A stretch of DNA of 33,246 nt, taken from contig CALVVN010000012.1 in NCBI GenBank assembly GCA_944363865.1, positions 1 to 33,246 on the forward strand. The letters are read 5' to 3'. Made by a program: the position numbers and the translations under genes. The stretch is from an uncultured Bacilli bacterium (GTDB lineage: Bacteria; Bacillota_I; Bacilli_A; RF39; UBA660). Under the pieces are notes generated by a model. That model searched no databases. It was given only the letters and a program-made list of their open reading frames with translations, and was not told where the DNA came from. This document shows, piece after piece, positions 2,918 to 33,246 of this stretch. Numbering within the stretch: the first letter of the stretch is position 1; each line of letters opens with the position of its first letter.

Positions 2918-2934
2918 TATTAGGGGTGATAAAT

Positions 2935-3861
2935 ATGAACTATATGACTACAAAAGAGGCTGTAGAAAAATGGAACATTAGTGAACGAAGAATTAGACAA
3001 CTATTATCTGAAGGTAGAATTGAAGGTGCAGTTAAAGTTGGAAATAGTTGGAATATTCCTGTTGACGCTGATAAACCAGATGATAAAAGAATAATTAAAC
3101 CTGATGATAATAATGTTATTATTGATTTAGATGATAATTATTTTGATGAAGTAGATAACTTAAAAAAAGAAGTAGATAGTAAAAGACCAATCTCTAAAGA
3201 AACTTTAAAATCATTAAAAGAAACTATTAATTTAGAATGGACTTATAATAGTAATGGAATTGAAGGAAATACTTTAACATTAAAGGAAACTCAAGTTGTT
3301 TTAGAAGGTATTGCTGTAGGTGGAAAGTCTATTAAAGAGCATTTAGAAGCAATTAATCATGAAAAAGCAATTTTATATTTAGATGATTTGGTAAAAGATA
3401 AAAATCCAATAACTGAATGGAATATTAAGAATATTCATCAGTTAATTTTAAAGGATATAGATAATGAAAATGCTGGTAGATATAGAAGGGAAAACGTAAC
3501 TATAAAAGGTGCAACTCATATTCCACCGGATTATATTAAAATTCCTGAATTAATGGGAAAATTAATACTTAATTATAGTAGTTGGAGTAAATATCATCCA
3601 ATAATTAAAGCTGCATTATTACATGGGGAATTAGTTAAAATACATCCATTTGTTGATGGTAATGGAAGAACATCAAGATTACTTATGAATTTAGATCTTA
3701 TGAATAGTGGATATAATCCAGTTATAATAAAAAAAGAATTAAGATTAAAATATTATGAAGCATTAGATAAAGCGCATACTACTGGTGATTATACTGATTT
3801 TGTTAAGTTAGTTACTAAATTAGAAGTAGATATGTTAAAAAAATATTTAGAAATGATGTAA
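2935..3861 (+). CDS. Fic-family protein (probable AMPylase) with an N-terminal excisionase/MerR-type HTH
   Basis: Fic motif HPFVDGNGRTSR. Inhibitory-helix-like SNGIEGN ([ST]xxxE[GN]). N-terminus MTTKEAVEKWNISERRIRQLLSEGRI is HTH-like. GGGGTGA SD precedes ATG 2935. Confidence 0.85.
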   Translation: MNYMTTKEAVEKWNISERRIRQLLSEGRIEGAVKVGNSWNIPVDADKPDDKRIIKPDDNNVIIDLDDNYFDEVDNLKKEVDSKRPISKETLKSLKETINLEWTYNSNGIEGNTLTLKETQVVLEGIAVGGKSIKEHLEAINHEKAILYLDDLVKDKNPITEWNIKNIHQLILKDIDNENAGRYRRENVTIKGATHIPPDYIKIPELMGKLILNYSSWSKYHPIIKAALLHGELVKIHPFVDGNGRTSRLLMNLDLMNSGYNPVIIKKELRLKYYEALDKAHTTGDYTDFVKLVTKLEVDMLKKYLEMM

Positions 3862-5125: not shown

Positions 5126-6011
5126 ATGGAATTACAAAAACATTTTGATTTGGAAGAATATGTATCACGAATAAAATTATCTGATAATGTGTTATATCAT
5201 TTACAAGATACATCACAATCATTTGAAGAATATTTTAAAGTATTGTCTAATTATGGAAATTATGCCATATATTTTTGGATTGATTCATTATATAGAGAAT
5301 TAGCAGCAAGTTCTAAAATGGAAGGCGATTTTGTTTCTTTTGCTCAATTTCAAAATGATTTATATTTTTCAAGATTAGACATTTCACATAATAGAATTCA
5401 TGAATTACATAATATATTTGTGCCTACAGAAAAAAAGAATATAGAAACTGTGAAGTGAAAATATCAGGATTAGAATATGGAAAAGAAAAAATACATTAGT
5501 GGGGAGTAGATCATAGTGATGTTCCACAATTTATGAATGATTTTATTGATTTTTATAGACAAACTTCAGTTGATTTAAAATATTCTAACCCATTCATAAA
5601 GCTGCATTAGTGCATTTAATTTTTGTAAGAATTCACCCATACAGAGATGGAAACGGAAGAACTGATAGATTATTGCAAAATATAAAGTTTGTTCAATTAA
5701 TAAATAATATTTATGGTTCGAGATTAAAAATATCACCACTAAACATATTAGAAAACATATTGATAAATAAACCGACATATGTCAAATGGTTAAATGCCAT
5801 GAATTTTAATGGTGTCGACGATGATAATGATGCAATAAATCATTTTATAAATTTTATTTTAAATATGACTGACGAACAACTATTTTATGCTACAAATAAA
5901 CTAAGATCATACCAAAGAATGCTTGATAACTGGGAAACTATGTATGTTGATGAAGAACTAGAAAAAGACGCTGAAATTATGAAATTGAAAAGAATATTTA
6001 GACATAAATAA
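5126..6011 (+). pseudogene. second Fic-family gene, disrupted
   Basis: The three frames join into one Fic protein: SSKMEGD, then EVKISGLEYGKEKIH*WGVDHSDVPQFMNDFIDFY...NPFIK, then AALVHLIFVRIHPYRDGNGRTDRLL. The lesions are a frameshift near 5450, an in-frame TAG at 5497-5499 and a frameshift near 5596-5600. Confidence 0.75.
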
Positions 6012-13478: not shown

Positions 13479-16073
13479 TTAATCGTCTTTAAACTTTTTT
13501 ACTAAAAACGGTTTAATTAACTCTATTGCAATAAAAGAGATAATATTAATGCCAATTACGTATAAAAACTGAGTAAAGTTTATTATAACCAGGCCGAACA
13601 ACTTACCTACTGGTGTAAAAAACACTAAAACTTGTACAATTAATAAAGCAAATATACCAATATTTAAATACTTATTAGTAAATATCCCCCTTTTATGAAC
13701 TTGTTCTTTTAAACTTCTACAGTTATAAGCAAATATAAACTCATTTACAACAACGCTTAGTAAAGCTAAAGTCTGCGCAATATCTTTACCGTAATCACTA
13801 AAATGATAATAAACTATTAAACTAATACCTGCTTCCAAGATAACAGAAACAATTAAAAACGCAGTAAAAAATCTAGTAAATATTTTCTTATCTAAACCAT
13901 TAGGTTTTCTGTTCATGATATCTTTGGACGCACCTTCAAATGCGAGTGTAATAGAAGGAATAGTGTCAGCAATAAGATCAATATATAAAACATGAATTGC
14001 AGTGATGATAGTATTACCTGTAAGCATTCCAAAAAGTATGATAACTATTTCAGTGAAGTTACTTGATAAATTATATAAAATATTTGTAATAACATTATCG
14101 TATATTCTTCTACCTTCACTAACTGCAGTAGTTATAGTATTATAACTATCATCTAATAAAATTATATCAGAGACGTCTTTAGTTACATCCGTTCCTGTTT
14201 TTCCCATTCCAATTCCGACATTGGCAAGTTTAATAGCAGGAGCATCATTCACTCCATCCCCTGTCATTGCAACTACTTTTCCCTCACTTTGAATAGCTTT
14301 TACTATTTTAAGTTTATGGCTAGGACTAACTCTTGCAAACACAGAATACTTTTTTACATATTCTAATATTTCTTTATCAGATAAATTATCTAATTGTGAA
14401 GCATTAATGCACTCATCTTCCCTACTACAAATACCAACTTCTTTAGCAATACTAGTAGCAGTTTCTAGATTATCACCAGTTAACATAATCGGGCGAATAT
14501 TAGCATTTTTACAAGTAGTAATAGCTTCTTTAATGTTAGGTCTAACAGGATCTTTTAACCCTACTAAACCGACAAATATTAAATCATCTTCTTCTGCTTG
14601 ATATTCTTTAATATCTTTTAACTCTTTATATGCAAATGCTAAAACCTTTAAAGATTCTTTAGCCATATTATCATGTATTTCAGTATAACTTTTTTTAATA
14701 TCACTTGTAAGTTTTTTAACTTTACCTTCAATTAAAACCCTATTACACTTTAAAATAACAGATTCAAAACTTCCCTTTGTAAAAATATATTTTTTTGAAT
14801 CTAAATCACAAAAAACACTCATCATTTTTCTATCTGAATCAAAAGGGAGTTCGTACAATTTCTCATAGTCATTAATACTTAATTTTCTATTTTTTAAATA
14901 GCATCTAATAGCAACGTCTACTGAATCTCCAACATATTCGTTTTTATCATTAAGTATTGCCGTATTGCAAACACTCATATTTTGAATAAGTTTTTCATAA
15001 TTACTAAGATTATCTTTAATTTCCAAACCATCAGCCCAAAGTTCAATAACTTCCATTTTATTTTCAGTTATAGTACCAGTTTTATCAGTACATATGACAT
15101 TAGTCGCACCTAACGTTTCAATAGCTGCTAAGTTTCTAACAATAGATTTTTTCTTAGCCATCTGACTAACACCAATAGATAAAGTTGCAGTTATCGCAAT
15201 TGGAAGACATTCTGGAACACTTGCTACAATCATAGAAATACAAAGCATAACGACATTTAACACAGTATAATCATTAATTAGCCCATAAACAAGTACAAAA
15301 GTTACTAATATACTGGCGATTATAGTAATAAACTTACTAATTTTCTCAACTTTAACTTGTAAAGGAGTCAAAGGTTCTTCATCAGTGTCAATGACTTTTG
15401 CTATTTTACCTAATTCAGTATTCATGCCTATTGATGTAACTACAGCAGTTAACTTACCAGAAACAAGTATAGTTCCACTATAAATCATATTTTTTCTATC
15501 AGATATTGCAACCTTTTTAGAAATATCACAAACCATTTTATCAATGTTTTGACTTTCACCAGTCAAGATAGATTCATCACTTTTAGCATTAAAACTTTCA
15601 ATTATTCTCGCATCTGCCGGGATTTTATCGCCTGCTTCAAGAACGATAATATCTCCTACTACTAGATTTTTAGAGTCAATTCTTTTAAACTTATTACTCC
15701 TTTTTACTGTCACATAATTAGTAGTATATTTTTTTAATTTACTAATAGCATCTTCTGCTTTAGATTCTTGTAAAAATCCCATAAAACAATTTATTAGAGA
15801 AGTCCCTAAAATAACTATCGGTTCTAAAAAATCACTTTTATTAATAATTGCATATATCAAAGACATTACGCCAACTACTAATAATAAAATAATCATAATG
15901 TTTTTAAATTGTTTTAAAAAAAGTTCAATTTTACTCTTTTTATTACTCTCTATTAAAGTATTTTTACCATATAATTTTTGTAATTTTTTTACTTCTTGTT
16001 GACTTAAACCACGATTAGAAGTACTAAACTCTTTAAATATTTCATCAATGCTTTTTTGATATGTTTCTTTCAT
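13479..16073 (-). CDS. cation-transporting P-type ATPase, Ca2+ (type II) subfamily
   Basis: LTGESQ, CTDKTGTITENKM, MLTGDNLETA, MTGDGVNDAPAIK, with N-terminal cation-ATPase-N-like GLSQQEVKKLQKLYGKN. Confidence 0.9.
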   Translation of the reverse strand: MKETYQKSIDEIFKEFSTSNRGLSQQEVKKLQKLYGKNTLIESNKKSKIELFLKQFKNIMIILLLVVGVMSLIYAIINKSDFLEPIVILGTSLINCFMGFLQESKAEDAISKLKKYTTNYVTVKRSNKFKRIDSKNLVVGDIIVLEAGDKIPADARIIESFNAKSDESILTGESQNIDKMVCDISKKVAISDRKNMIYSGTILVSGKLTAVVTSIGMNTELGKIAKVIDTDEEPLTPLQVKVEKISKFITIIASILVTFVLVYGLINDYTVLNVVMLCISMIVASVPECLPIAITATLSIGVSQMAKKKSIVRNLAAIETLGATNVICTDKTGTITENKMEVIELWADGLEIKDNLSNYEKLIQNMSVCNTAILNDKNEYVGDSVDVAIRCYLKNRKLSINDYEKLYELPFDSDRKMMSVFCDLDSKKYIFTKGSFESVILKCNRVLIEGKVKKLTSDIKKSYTEIHDNMAKESLKVLAFAYKELKDIKEYQAEEDDLIFVGLVGLKDPVRPNIKEAITTCKNANIRPIMLTGDNLETATSIAKEVGICSREDECINASQLDNLSDKEILEYVKKYSVFARVSPSHKLKIVKAIQSEGKVVAMTGDGVNDAPAIKLANVGIGMGKTGTDVTKDVSDIILLDDSYNTITTAVSEGRRIYDNVITNILYNLSSNFTEIVIILFGMLTGNTIITAIHVLYIDLIADTIPSITLAFEGASKDIMNRKPNGLDKKIFTRFFTAFLIVSVILEAGISLIVYYHFSDYGKDIAQTLALLSVVVNEFIFAYNCRSLKEQVHKRGIFTNKYLNIGIFALLIVQVLVFFTPVGKLFGLVIINFTQFLYVIGINIISFIAIELIKPFLVKKFKDD

Positions 16074-16216
16074 ATATATACCTTCCTATAATTATTATTA
16101 TACTATAAAATAAAAGTATTAACAAACAATAATCCAAATATTGCCATAGATAATCAAAAAAACTGAGTATTATTACCCTCATTATGAAAATAATAATAAC
16201 AGGTGGTGATTATATA

Positions 16217-16366
16217 ATGGCTAAAAGCAGAAATACAAGTAGAAACAGTTCTAGAAATTCTAGTAGAAATACAAGCAGAAACAGTGCTAGAAACACTAGT
16301 AGAAATAGTGCTAGAAATACAAGTAGAAACAGTTCTAGAAATTCTAGTAGAAATACATCTAAATAG
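16217..16366 (+). CDS. 49-aa highly basic protein made of 11 tandem [S/A]-R-N-[S/T] tetrapeptides
   Basis: MAK-(SRNT SRNS SRNS SRNT SRNS ARNT SRNS ARNT SRNS SRNS SRNT)-SK. AGGTGGTGA SD at 16201-16209 lies 7 nt before ATG 16217. A hairpin terminator follows. The track start at 16184 has no SD. Confidence 0.55.
   Translation: MAKSRNTSRNSSRNSSRNTSRNSARNTSRNSARNTSRNSSRNSSRNTSK
16226..16357 (+). repeat. 11 x 12-nt in-frame tandem repeat (NNN AGA AAY NNN)
   Basis: Exact 12-nt periodicity. The 36-nt block at 16238-16273 is repeated identically at 16322-16357. Confidence 0.9.
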
Positions 16367-16373
16367 TCAAAAT

Positions 16374-16408
16374 AAAAGAGACGGTTATTATTTGATAATG
16401 TCTCTTTT
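16374..16408. terminator. bidirectional rho-independent terminator shared by the repeat-protein gene and deoB
   Basis: AAAAGAGAC (16374-16382) pairs with GTCTCTTTT (16400-16408). Flanking A/T runs are present. It abuts the deoB stop at 16409-16411. Confidence 0.6.
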
Positions 16409-17575
16409 TTAATGCAACAATTCAAGAAAACTAGTGCCAGTATTAAGCGTATCGTTAATATCATAGTTATCAATTATAGTCGCACCTATATCAGCTAAAG
16501 TGTTTCTGTTATCCAGTTTACCAGAATCTTTCATTTTAGTACTATAAACAATCAAAGGAACATTTTCTCTAGTATGATCAGTTCCCGAATAGGTAGGATC
16601 ATTACCATGATCAGCAGTAAAAATAACTAAATCAGTAGATTTAAGCCTATTTAAAAATATTGGTAAATAATAATTAAGTTCTTCTAATGCTCTCAAGTAA
16701 CCATCTCTATCTCTTCTATGACCATATAAAGTATCAAAATCATTTAGATTTACAAAACATAATCCTTTAAAGTTACTTTTAGCAACATCAATAAGTTTCA
16801 TTAGCCCATCAATGTTATTAGATGTTTTAATAGATGTAGTTATACTTTTATTTGCAAAAATATCTCCAATTTTACCAATTCCTAGAACTTCAACACCATT
16901 TCTATATAACAAATCCAAATAATTTTCCTTAGGAACAACAGTAAAATCTTTGCGTCTAGGTGTTCTTACAAAATCTCCAACTTTACCAACAAATGGTCTT
17001 GCAATGACCCTACCAATTTTATATTTTTCAGTTAAAACAATTTCGCTTATTTTTTTACAAATATTATATAATTCTTCAACTGGAATAACAGATTCATGCG
17101 CGGCAACCTGTAAAACAGAGTCCGCTGAAGTATAAACAATTATTGCCCCAGTTTTTATATGCATTTCGCCCAATTCTTCTATAATTTTTGTGCCTGAAGC
17201 AACAACATTACCAATTACTTCTCTATTTACAGCACGTTGTATTTCACTAATTAATTCAAGTGGAAAACCATCAGGATATGTTTGAAAAGGTTTTTTTTCA
17301 ATTAACCCCATCATTTCATAATGACCATTTAAAGTATCTTTAGCAAGGTTTTTAGGTTCAATAATAGCCCTATAACCAATTGTCCTTTCTTTATTAACAC
17401 CAACTAAATTCAAAAAACCTAACTTTTCTAAAATATTAAGATTATAGTTTCCTTTTTCAATTATATGTCCAAGCGTATTTGCCCCATCATCACCATACTT
17501 ATGAGCATCTTTAGCAGCACCAACACCCAAACTATCCAAAACCACCAAAAAAACTCTATCATACATAACTATCAC
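16409..17575 (-). CDS. deoB: phosphopentomutase
   Basis: VFLVVLDSLGVGAAKDAHKYGDDGANTLGHI, NLNDFDTLYGHRRD, TADHGNDPT. Confidence 0.9.
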   Translation of the reverse strand: MIVMYDRVFLVVLDSLGVGAAKDAHKYGDDGANTLGHIIEKGNYNLNILEKLGFLNLVGVNKERTIGYRAIIEPKNLAKDTLNGHYEMMGLIEKKPFQTYPDGFPLELISEIQRAVNREVIGNVVASGTKIIEELGEMHIKTGAIIVYTSADSVLQVAAHESVIPVEELYNICKKISEIVLTEKYKIGRVIARPFVGKVGDFVRTPRRKDFTVVPKENYLDLLYRNGVEVLGIGKIGDIFANKSITTSIKTSNNIDGLMKLIDVAKSNFKGLCFVNLNDFDTLYGHRRDRDGYLRALEELNYYLPIFLNRLKSTDLVIFTADHGNDPTYSGTDHTRENVPLIVYSTKMKDSGKLDNRNTLADIGATIIDNYDINDTLNTGTSFLELLH

Positions 17576-18438
17576 TTACCTTTCCTACTTCTGTTATGAA
17601 ATGCAATATAATTATTTTTTAATTCATTATTAACGATATGAGTATAAACATTAGTTGTATTTATATTCTCATGACCTAGCAATAACTGAATACTCCTTAA
17701 ATCAGCTCCACCTAATAATAAATGAGTAGCAAAACTATGGCGAAGTACATGTGGAGTTAAATAAGAATCAATCTTACATTTTAGTTTTAATTCATTCAAT
17801 ATATAATTAAAACCATTTCTAGTCATTTTTTTACCTTGATTATTAGGATACAATTCATCAATCAAATTATTTTTCAAAATATTCTTTCTATATTGTTCTA
17901 TATAAATCTTATTATATTTTAATGCAACAGAACCAACTGGGATAATTCTTTCCTTACTACCCTTACCTAATACTTTCAAAGTACACATTTCAAAATCAAG
18001 ATCATTTACTTTAATATTAACTAGTTCACTTACTCTAATACCTGTTGCATAAATTAATTCAAGCATTGCCTTGTTTCTATAATCTAAAGGTGTAATAAGT
18101 TTAAAATTAAGTAATCTATCTACTTCTTCTTTTGTCAAATATTTAGGTAAACTTTTATTAAGTTTCATTAAGTCTATATCTTTCACAACTTCAAGCATAT
18201 TGTGAAAAGAAAAAAATTGGCGAAGAATAGTAATTTCATGATTAATAGACTTAGGAGAATGACTATTTTTATTAGATAACAATATTTTTTTTAAATCATC
18301 TTTTGTACATTTAATTAGTTCTTTACCAGATGCAAATTCAATTAATTTTAAAGTATAAGTATAACTTGATATAGTATTAACGCTCATCTTTCTCTCAATT
18401 TTTAAATAGTCTAAAAACTCTATAATCCCTTTACTCAT
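17572..18438 (-). CDS. xerD: tyrosine site-specific recombinase XerD/XerC family
   Basis: FLDYLKIERKMSVNTISSY, ATGIRVSELVNIKVNDLD, HVLRHSFATHLLLGGADLRSIQLLLGHENINTTNVYTHI. It overlaps the deoB start by 4 nt. The XerD assignment rests on the Bacillus-like ripX-drm neighbourhood. The start is ATG 18438; the track GTG at 18462 is possible. Confidence 0.75.
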   Translation of the reverse strand: MSKGIIEFLDYLKIERKMSVNTISSYTYTLKLIEFASGKELIKCTKDDLKKILLSNKNSHSPKSINHEITILRQFFSFHNMLEVVKDIDLMKLNKSLPKYLTKEEVDRLLNFKLITPLDYRNKAMLELIYATGIRVSELVNIKVNDLDFEMCTLKVLGKGSKERIIPVGSVALKYNKIYIEQYRKNILKNNLIDELYPNNQGKKMTRNGFNYILNELKLKCKIDSYLTPHVLRHSFATHLLLGGADLRSIQLLLGHENINTTNVYTHIVNNELKNNYIAFHNRSRKGK

Positions 18439-18535
18439 ATCTACCCTACTTAAATATAACACAAATACTTGTTTTTATCAAATTGTTATTCTTTAGTTTA
18501 CGTTTTTATGTTAAAATATTATTGAGGAGTTAATT

Positions 18536-31603: not shown

Positions 31604-33175
31604 TTATTCTCCTATATCTTTTTTAATTTCTTTTACCAATTGTTCATTTGGAATTATTATATCAGCGGTTTTGTTATTAAATCCTATTATTACAAAACCA
31701 TTTTTATTTAATTCATCAAATACTTTATCATTTTTTACTTTATCTATAGCAGTGTCATATATTTTATTAAGGGTTACAAAAGCTTTATAATCAAATTCTT
31801 GTTGATTCTTATCATAATAAAGTGCATTTAAAATTTTCTTTATTAACTCAACTAGTTCAATAGAATTTAATCTAGTTTTAACATTTCTAACTTCGACTAA
31901 TTTTTTATCTAAATAATTAACCCAAAGATATTTACTACTAATAGTTCTTTGATATTTACAATATTCTTCAAAATCCCAAATAAACTTATATTGCTTGTAT
32001 ATATTTTCTTCAAAATAACTTTCTTTTTCGCTTAATAAAGCCATTAATTTTTTGTGAGATTCAATAGGATTTGTTATGTCGTATTGATTAAAATTCATAT
32101 GTATACCACAATTCTTTTCTGGAGATACTTGTATTAAGCCTTTAGAAAAAATCATTATTTCTTGTAAATTATTCCAAAACTCATAGATTTCTTCTACTTT
32201 TAAAGGGTCTAAAACTATTTCAAATGAATAATCCCCAATAATAGTACCGTCTTTAACAAAATATCCATTTTCGCCTACTAATTCTTTTATATTTGCAAGT
32301 AACTTTTTTGTAAACGAATATTTATCTCTTTCAAGAGTAACTGATACTTCTATTTCTAATCCTACTTCATCATAATCAATTTTATCTTTTAATTTTCTTT
32401 CATAACCAAACGCTGGTTTTATATCTAATACTTTATCAAATTTTGCTTCATAGTCAAATTTGTTCTTTTTAGTATTTCTGGATATTACTTTCTTACCTTT
32501 CTTATCTTTAAAAATAACTGATGTAAATTTAGATTTATTTTCTAAATAATTTATAACACCAAGTATGGCGTTTATTAAATTTGATACTTGTGATTTATCC
32601 TTATGAAAATTTCTATTCTTTTGTCCAATTTCTAGTTGAATTGATTTTACACCAGTATCTTTATGGATTCTAGAACATATAGTTTTATTATAGGATTTAT
32701 ATATTTTATCTACTGTGATTATTCCTAAATTATGTTTATTTAATTCCTTAATTATATCTTTCATGAGTATTCTATCATTATTTACATTTTTATAGTTATT
32801 TACACCTATATCTAAATCAGTAATTTCATTTATAGCTAAAGAATGAATATCAATAACATAATCAATATTATTACTTCTCACATATTTTTTTAAATATTCA
32901 TAATAAAAATTATTTTCTTTATCATAGTTTGGGTCATAATCAATCTCTTTATTAATATACATAACATGGCAATTTGATAATTCCGAAATTACTCTTATTA
33001 AAGAATATGTCAAATAATCTTTGCTTTTATTTTCACCATTTTTTTCGTAAGTAAAAGTATGAGGCGCTGACAACAAAATATTATTTGTTCCTTTTTTACA
33101 GTTTATTTCCTCAAATTTTACTAAATTTTTATCTTTTCTATGACTTTTTAAAAGTTTTCTAAATTCTTTTAGCAT
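31604..33175 (-). CDS. fusion protein: N-terminal FGase / poly-gamma-glutamate-hydrolase-like zinc amidohydrolase domain plus C-terminal GS-like amidoligase (Amidoligase_2-like) domain
   Basis: N-terminal half (track numbering): ILLSAPH42T, IDYDPNYD 81-88, VIDIH114S, IQLE185IG. C-terminal half: GLEIEVS 275-281, KDGTIIGDYSFEIVLDP 311-327, CGIHMNFN 359-366. AGGAG lies 9 nt before ATG 33175. The track ATG at 33184 is too close to that SD. Confidence 0.6.
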   Translation of the reverse strand: MLKEFRKLLKSHRKDKNLVKFEEINCKKGTNNILLSAPHTFTYEKNGENKSKDYLTYSLIRVISELSNCHVMYINKEIDYDPNYDKENNFYYEYLKKYVRSNNIDYVIDIHSLAINEITDLDIGVNNYKNVNNDRILMKDIIKELNKHNLGIITVDKIYKSYNKTICSRIHKDTGVKSIQLEIGQKNRNFHKDKSQVSNLINAILGVINYLENKSKFTSVIFKDKKGKKVISRNTKKNKFDYEAKFDKVLDIKPAFGYERKLKDKIDYDEVGLEIEVSVTLERDKYSFTKKLLANIKELVGENGYFVKDGTIIGDYSFEIVLDPLKVEEIYEFWNNLQEIMIFSKGLIQVSPEKNCGIHMNFNQYDITNPIESHKKLMALLSEKESYFEENIYKQYKFIWDFEEYCKYQRTISSKYLWVNYLDKKLVEVRNVKTRLNSIELVELIKKILNALYYDKNQQEFDYKAFVTLNKIYDTAIDKVKNDKVFDELNKNGFVIIGFNNKTADIIIPNEQLVKEIKKDIGE

Positions 33176-33246
33176 TTTCACCATCTCCTATTTTATCTGT
33201 AATAAACATCGCATCACCAAAGCTAAAAAATCTGTAATTATTCTTT
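33159..33246 (-). CDS. queA: 3' end of S-adenosylmethionine:tRNA ribosyltransferase-isomerase
   Basis: Hand translation gives KNNYRFFSFGDAMFITDKIGDGENAKRI*. YRFFS[YF]GDAM[FL]I is the conserved QueA C-terminus. The gene continues beyond the window. Confidence 0.7.
   Translation of the reverse strand, partial: KNNYRFFSFGDAMFITDKIGDGENAKRI

Follow-up and report, generated by a model that had tools for sequence, protein, structure and literature searches.

A small gene in the DNA of an uncultured Bacilli bacterium (assembly GCA_944363865.1, contig CALVVN010000012.1, 33,246 nucleotides (nt); the whole stretch is called the window) encodes a 49-residue basic repeat protein, P0001. The gene is real and conserved, its predicted promoter matches that of spore-protein genes in layout, and its distribution among related genomes complements that of the alpha/beta SASPs (small acid-soluble spore proteins), the products of ssp genes. 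SASPs of this type are regarded as a mark of nearly all endospore formers and as the chief means by which spore DNA is protected. The small gene probably encodes a sporulation protein made in the forespore. The best explanation of the evidence as a whole, namely a forespore-expressed, protamine-like and sequence-unrelated substitute for SASPs, is in our judgement about evenly balanced between right and wrong.

The small gene and its coding evidence

The window is contig 12 of an 859-kb metagenome-assembled genome (MAG) that is 67% complete (G000). The coding sequence (16217..16366, plus strand, stop codon included) is translated into Met-Ala-Lys, eleven tetrapeptides of the form xRNx and a terminal Ser-Lys. 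The 49-residue peptide contains 11 Arg, 2 Lys, 11 Asn, 16 Ser, 5 Thr and 3 Ala and, Met1 excepted, has no acidic, aromatic or aliphatic residue; nine of its eleven units form an N-x-S/T sequon. The translation agrees in length, unit number and composition with a preliminary description of the window, made from the sequence letters. The array of eleven in-frame 12-nt units occupies 16226..16357 on the plus strand. Tandem Repeats Finder placed it at 16229-16356 with a period of 12, 10.7 copies and a score of 102, and nested periods of 24, 36 and 48 over the same array scored 121-156, the top repeat scores in the window. The 36-nt block reported earlier as occurring twice (16238-16273 and 16322-16357) is real, and the identity extends 9 nt leftward to give 45 identical nt.

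The Shine-Dalgarno sequence AGGTGGTGA lies at 16201..16209 (plus strand), 7 nt ahead of the ATG. After the stop codon, a hairpin at 16374..16408, which separates the small gene from convergent deoB, has a folding energy of -12.2 kcal/mol (z = -3.8; 0 of 200 shuffles folded equally well), and a simple terminator scan reported no site for it. Equivalent terminator hairpins with differing stem sequences were found in relatives. The gene has a Shine-Dalgarno sequence and a terminator of its own and a convergent neighbour, and it is a stand-alone gene, as had been proposed.

The coding sequence is also stop-free in frames +2, -1 and -2 within the window, owing to the repetitive sequence, so the open frame alone is weak coding evidence, and the coding frame was settled by comparison with relatives. 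Among the first nine homologs, the annotated frame alone is open in all, and the +2 and antisense frames gain stops. The small gene is kept in frame in 5 of 5 genus-mates, and the comparison with the closest of them (G005) gave five synonymous and no non-synonymous codon differences. The constraint on the peptide that the preliminary description had suspected, and the conservation in close relatives that it had asked about, were both found in this way. In more than 40 genomes of many genera, the start codon, the Shine-Dalgarno sequence and the terminator are kept.

The array evolves fast and always in frame. In the comparison of the genomes G001 and G003, the flanks have 1 difference in 140 positions and 10 in 600, and the repeats have 19 differing positions and an in-frame gap of a single 12-nt unit, which leaves G001 with 10 units. 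The copy-number variation in multiples of 12 nt that had been predicted thus occurs between near-identical flanks. Contigs from four sequencing runs break inside the repeat, where the strain copy number is not readable. The runs that contain DNA of the locus are mostly chicken gut metagenomes, and no RNA runs were found among the runs listed as containing the sequence.

Other roles for the repeat were tried and rejected. The antisense frame (16210..16473, minus strand) is an 87-residue, Leu/Phe-rich hydrophobic open reading frame (ORF), a by-product of the repeat, for which no Shine-Dalgarno sequence or start codon was seen; an antisense hydrophobic peptide or type I toxin was rejected, as the frame is broken by stops in G353 and G019. 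An RNA repeat target of the TRAP or Hfq type was also rejected: the ARN pattern follows from Arg, Asn and Ser codons, and conservation at the protein level explains it. A leader peptide was dismissed on the grounds that the gene has its own terminator and that its neighbour is convergent.

Family members, promoters and distribution

Relatives of the small gene were sought in 401 genomes of the same taxonomic family, each at least 85% complete. A profile built from 8 members matched 19 of them, including 17 bona fide members in 10 genera, one false match inside a larger ORF (G392) and one doubtful match (G450). A second profile, built from 17 members, matched 9 of 80 further genomes; seven of these were not already known, all bona fide on inspection. 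Profiles miss most members because the sequence diverges so fast. A search by position, directly downstream of xerD, revealed a gene of 28-52 residues in 4 of 5 and then in 16 of 22 profile-negative genomes (20 of 27), and the genes found in this way have the same composition, Shine-Dalgarno sequence and upstream motif as the family. In the window, the small gene is flanked by a divergent P-type Ca-ATPase gene (13479..16073, minus strand) and a convergent xerD-deoB pair (16409..18462, minus strand), and both genes of the pair serve as synteny anchors: deoB, encoding phosphopentomutase (16409..17575; NF003766, 480.8 bits), and the gene of an xerD-like tyrosine recombinase (17572..18462). A deoB query gave no match in five SASP-less genomes, and deoB is missing at that locus; where it is absent, the small gene directly follows xerD.

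Family members are 28-55 residues long, basic and rich in Asn, Ser, Arg, Ala and Lys. The 30 tabulated members (35-55 residues, net charge +7 to +13) consist of 26% Asn, 24% Ser, 16% Arg, 12% Ala and 9% Lys, and hydrophobic residues are nearly absent. Across the family, it is composition, size, promoter and location (convergent to xerD, or xerD-deoB) that are conserved, not the tetrapeptide period; the strict period of four residues is limited to the genus of the window and close genera. One to three Cys, often near the C-terminus, occur in 21 of the 30 tabulated members, whose composition is Cys-poor apart from these, and the window protein has none. The carriers are spread over many genera within a single family of uncultured gut Bacilli, whose genomes are about 1 Mb in size.

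The distinct family promoters share a fixed layout, in which a G[ACT][AG]TN pentamer stands exactly 17 nt before a [CA]A..TA heptamer (25 of 29). In 19 of the 29, a TT[AT]CCA or TAACCA box precedes the -35 element by 9-12 or 19-22 nt, a distance of one or two helical turns. The window promoter has the -35-like element GTATT (16167..16171, plus strand) of this pentamer class, 17 nt before the -10-like element AATAATA (16189..16195, plus strand), which is CATAATA in most other genera. Its upstream box is a variant, TTGCCA (16141..16146, plus strand), read by eye outside the search pattern and 20 nt before the -35-like element. Twenty alpha/beta-SASP genes from sister genera were inspected for the same signals: 17 share the layout of -35, 17-nt spacer and -10, and 16 have the box, 10-11 nt upstream. 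The Shine-Dalgarno sequence ACAGG(A/T)GGTGA is common to these genes and the small gene. As a background, the box was found at a comparable distance in 26 of 847 ORFs of the window genome (3.1%). By sequence, the predicted promoter of the small gene has the layout of the spore-protein genes, and a conserved cis-element upstream of ssp promoters is defined for this group. In its longer form, AAATT(A/T)CCA, this box stands 10-11 nt upstream of the -35 element of alpha/beta-SASP genes in 16 of 20 genomes (L221-L240, L183-L187); it is a candidate forespore-regulator site and is absent from the spoVAC promoter of the window genome.

Sporulation genes of the group offer further comparisons. The spoVAC promoter of the window genome reads GTATG-N17-CATAATA and is followed by a Shine-Dalgarno sequence; its spoVA operon lies directly after a sigma-factor gene, whose identity was read from its C-terminus, with no scan. 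The -10 element and Shine-Dalgarno sequence are arranged alike at the gene of a 326-residue protein in G023, SpoIVB-like to judge by its N-terminus. The sigma-G consensus is GHATR-N17/18-CATXHTA, for which no printed source was found. Because CATAAT is near the housekeeping -10, the assignment to a sigma-G-type promoter depends chiefly on its resemblance to the ssp and spoVA promoters found locally. A loose form of the consensus occurs in a promoter-like position in the window genome only at spoVAC and two small ORFs. On contig C24 of the same genome, a 48-residue ORF begins 15 nt behind a perfect match to the consensus (43938-43967, plus strand); it has no NCBIfam match and may encode another small forespore protein.

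The distribution of the small gene is complementary to that of alpha/beta SASPs. Among the 401 genomes, the SASP family PF00269 was detected in 246 and SpoVAC/EB in 354; 245 genomes have both, and 109 of the 354 SpoVA-bearing genomes have no detectable SASP. Most of those examined carry the small gene behind an ssp-like promoter. The first profile found it in 17 of the 109 SASP-less, SpoVA-positive genomes, in SASP-bearing genomes only as the false match in G392, and in no SpoVA-negative genome. With the second profile, 9 of 80 SASP-less genomes matched vs 0 of 80 SASP-bearing genomes (80 genera). By position after xerD, the gene was seen in 20 of 27 SASP-less, SpoVA-positive genomes, in 0 of 29 SASP-bearing genomes and in 2 of 15 SpoVA-negative genomes; these two are 88-89% complete, and both have SpoVA-positive genus-mates. 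In five carriers, PF00269 gave no match even at E<=10.

Sporulation genes are kept by the carriers. Spo0A and SpoIVA were found above cut-off in 5 of 5, an SpoVT-like gene below cut-off in 5 of 5, and a GPR protease of reduced length in 4 of 5 (TIGR01441, 181 bits with the cut-off at 120), the one in which it was not found being G353. GPR is thus kept without detectable alpha/beta SASP. The GPR of G001 (L195:1384-2121) has 246 residues and covers profile positions 10-232 of 306, and it also occurs in G003, G004 and G130. These genomes and G353 measure about 0.8-1.3 Mb (90-95% complete) and have Spo0A, SpoIVA, SpoVAC/EB, the SpoVT-like gene and GPR as a set, with G353 as noted for the protease; such genomes would be very small for endospore formers, and contigs C49 and C56 of the window genome were grouped with them. 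In the genus of the window, Spo0A, SpoIVA, SpoVAC/EB and GPR are above cut-off. The preliminary description had also named spoIVB, spoIIM and spoVB as genes of the organism; all three have NCBIfam matches, and all three stay below the cut-offs (302/305, 62/100 and 277/372 bits, respectively).

According to a review by Galperin et al., 75 of 76 spore formers have alpha/beta SASP, and Gpr is universal in them (bioRxiv 10.1101/2022.02.25.481979). The lone exception given there is [Clostridium] innocuum, the nature of whose SASPs "remains enigmatic" (bioRxiv 10.1101/2022.02.25.481979). For the uncultured orders RF39, RFN20 and ML615J-28, a mix of sporulating and non-sporulating species is predicted in a study of Mycoplasmatales-related Bacilli (PMC10868615), which would fit the group of the carriers.

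P0001 matches no described family in Pfam or NCBIfam. A Pfam scan (E<=10) returned only a chance match to PF14999 (E 0.31) and none to PF00269, an NCBIfam scan returned 0 families, and no Pfam or NCBIfam model of the minor SASPs (SspH, I, K-P and Tlp) matched, in line with the earlier remark that no described family was recognized. The ESM Atlas contains the exact sequence, with the nearest clusters (0.79-0.80) made of hypothetical proteins, which is a lead only. The 17-member alignment, run against 1.84 billion representatives, gave 8 matches at E<=0.001, all of them low-complexity stretches in proteins of 142-1001 residues and none of them a small protein of the family. A word-indexed protein search with P0001 listed 943 candidates and scored none, P0001 itself included, and is uninformative for a low-complexity query. 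No description of such a protein was found in the literature searched.

Pattern searches were hampered by other repeats. A degenerate DNA pattern, too loose for the purpose, hit at least 120 loci over the genome contigs, nearly all of them unrelated simple repeats; among the matches listed, L122 alone is a true member, and its protein is identical to that of G005. A four-unit pattern matched 35 of the 401 genomes, mostly through an unrelated GGAATTGAACAA-type repeat, with G000, G003, G004 and G353 as the true matches. This 12-nt GGAATTGAACAA-type repeat recurs across many of the family's genomes, often close to the ends of contigs (L011, L014, L018, L021, L030, L033 and L035), and is unrelated to the small gene.

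Proposed function and competing explanations

For the small protein, we infer forespore transcription, abundance in the spore, DNA binding and degradation at germination. A small, intrinsically unstructured and strongly basic protein would be made late in the forespore from a sigma-G-type promoter, under an upstream regulator site that alpha/beta-SASP genes in sister genera also have. Through electrostatic, protamine-like binding by Arg and Lys, the protein would cover the spore chromosome of this SASP-less lineage and protect it, and Asn and Ser would keep the protein soluble and hydrogen-bonding. During germination, the protein would be degraded to release nitrogen-rich amino acids and would probably serve as a reserve as well. 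We give somewhat less than an even chance to the proposal that it binds DNA as a substitute for alpha/beta SASP. More tentative still is the general claim that the family is the functional replacement of alpha/beta SASPs in endospore formers without them, under the same forespore promoter and regulator site as the ssp genes. The origin of the small gene may lie in an ssp gene whose N/S/K-rich N-terminal tail expanded. The idea of a SASP-like spore-core protein had already been raised in the preliminary description; it gains substantial indirect support from the ssp/spoVA-type promoter and from the SASP-less genomes that keep sporulation genes. The protamine-like nucleic-acid binder, which had been offered beside it, is compatible with a spore protein.

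The foremost competing explanation is a spore protein without DNA-binding activity, a nitrogen-rich and hydrophilic reserve or core filler similar to gamma-type SASP that is degraded at germination. It shares the promoter and phyletic evidence with the proposed SASP substitute, and it is suited by very fast divergence with only composition and length conserved, by repeats as in gamma-type SASP and by the retention of GPR. However, such a reserve leaves the restriction to genomes without alpha/beta SASP unexplained, as gamma-type SASP coexists with alpha/beta SASP in Bacillales; storage needs no consistent charge of +7 to +13, and the protein has no GPR-type site. We consider it unlikely. A vegetative or stress-induced polycation, binding RNA, ribosomes or the nucleoid under a housekeeping sigma factor and with no link to sporulation, appears quite improbable. 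The match of CATAAT to TATAAT at 5 of 6 positions and the strong Shine-Dalgarno sequence would agree with it, and small basic ribosome-associated proteins exist in other bacteria. The -35 element is poor for a housekeeping factor, however, and the exact 17-nt spacer and the upstream box are common to ssp genes. Furthermore, the gene was found in none of the SASP-bearing genomes searched, either by profile (0/80) or by position (0/29), and the two SpoVA-negative carriers among 15 such genomes are both less than 90% complete and have the SpoVA-positive genus-mates mentioned above.

It is very improbable that no functional protein is made and that the locus is a hypervariable simple-sequence tract, a regulatory RNA, an antisense hydrophobic frame or a decaying ssp remnant. 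Three other frames are stop-free in the window, the repeat evolves faster than its flanks, and the promoter, Shine-Dalgarno sequence and N/S/K-rich N-terminus resemble those of ssp genes. Against this stand the single frame open in all nine first homologs, the start codon and Shine-Dalgarno sequence that more than 40 genomes in many genera have kept along with the terminator, and the five of five synonymous codon differences from the closest relative, together with indels that keep the frame. A dedicated modification substrate, an idea also raised in the preliminary description, with for example Arg/Ser phosphorylation or Asn glycosylation at the N-x-S/T sequons, has the least to recommend it and is nearly negligible: Ser and Thr are abundant and 9 of the 11 units of the window protein form the sequon, but the pattern is lost in divergent members, and no modifying enzyme is linked to the gene, whose neighbours are xerD, deoB and the P-type ATPase.

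Several observations weigh against the proposed SASP substitute itself. On the side of the promoter, the call is made from sequence alone and CATAAT matches the housekeeping -10 at 5 of 6 positions; in the genus of the window the -10 begins with A and not C, and the fifth -35 base is T, vs a purine in the sigma-G consensus. Genome-wide in G000, the loose sigma-G consensus was found 34 times vs about 52 in shuffles, with no enrichment. On the side of the protein, basic residues make up only about 25%, far below protamines, and AlphaFold2 run on the family alignment gave one long low-confidence helix and no confident fold (predicted local distance difference test, pLDDT, 54). The extreme sequence divergence is as compatible with a role that depends on composition only, for example storage, as with DNA binding, and GPR is kept, yet the small protein has no acidic residue and hence no canonical GPR site. 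As to the distribution, 7 of the 27 profile-negative SASP-less genomes have no such gene at the locus; in four of these seven the DNA after deoB was read and has no small gene, and for one no downstream DNA was available. In a quick tree of XerD (a single gene, 56 rows, the careful search unfinished), three of the seven fall inside SASP-bearing groups, where the ssp gene may be unassembled. The same tree places the carriers in at least two groups, and the complementary pattern may go back to a single independent event. All of the genomes were assembled from metagenomes of uncultured organisms, with spore formation predicted from genes.

The interest of the family lies in a testable answer to the question of how SASP-less spore formers protect their DNA. 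If the proposal is true, this question becomes directly testable, the protein is a concrete and synthesisable candidate for an alternative protection of dormant DNA, and spore DNA could be protected without the conserved SASP fold. It would also follow that such proteins escape gene callers as well as tryptic proteomics: with a basic residue at about every fourth position, trypsin would cut the small protein into tetrapeptides. Similar unannotated mini-genes may explain other SASP-less spore formers, for example [Clostridium] innocuum.

Elsewhere in the window, two Fic-domain-like ORFs (2926-3861 and 5610-6011, plus strand) have weak NCBIfam matches to the models of mobile mystery protein B and Fic adenylyltransferase; the second ORF, a short one, may represent a fragment. 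A 525-residue ORF without NCBIfam match (31604-33184, minus strand) adjoins tgt and a gene of a RimK-like ligase.

Comparison with known spore proteins and protamines

The small protein resembles alpha/beta SASPs in being small and hydrophilic, with an N/S/K-rich N-terminus, and in its proposed role of protecting spore DNA. The genes are alike as well: each is a stand-alone, monocistronic gene that has a strong Shine-Dalgarno sequence and its own terminator, and the alpha/beta-SASP genes of sister genera share the TT[AT]CCA box, the G.AT. pentamer, the 17-nt spacing and the CA..TA heptamer. In contrast to alpha/beta SASPs, the small protein has no PF00269 match or sequence similarity to them, contains neither hydrophobic nor acidic residues, and lacks a GPR site and a conserved helical core for DNA binding. 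It is of low complexity and diverges very fast, whereas alpha/beta SASPs show high conservation. Their genes sit at a different locus and were never found in the same genome as the small gene in the samples searched.

Gamma-type SASP (SspE), which coexists with alpha/beta SASP and is restricted to Bacillales, is likewise a low-complexity, repeat-containing, amide-rich and presumably unstructured protein and a candidate amino-acid reserve; the eleven tandem units and the 22% Asn of the window protein (family mean 26%) are of this low-complexity, amide-rich type. Unlike SspE, the small protein is strongly basic and not Gln-rich, and it has no TEFASEF-type GPR sites and no Pfam match. As profile matches fail, the small protein is placed outside the alpha/beta, gamma and minor SASP families on the evidence of its sequence.

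The likeness to protamines, with no homology implied for a bacterial protein, lies in short, unstructured, Arg/Ser-rich polycations that evolve fast under a constraint on composition and in the proposed role of compacting and protecting dormant DNA. By composition, the small protein is not a protamine. Arg makes up about half or more of the residues of protamines and Arg plus Lys 50% or more, whereas the window protein has 11 Arg in 49 residues (22%) and the family has on average 16% Arg and 9% Lys, about 25% together, with Asn as its commonest residue. The small gene is, in our verdict, a new sequence family within a known functional kind.

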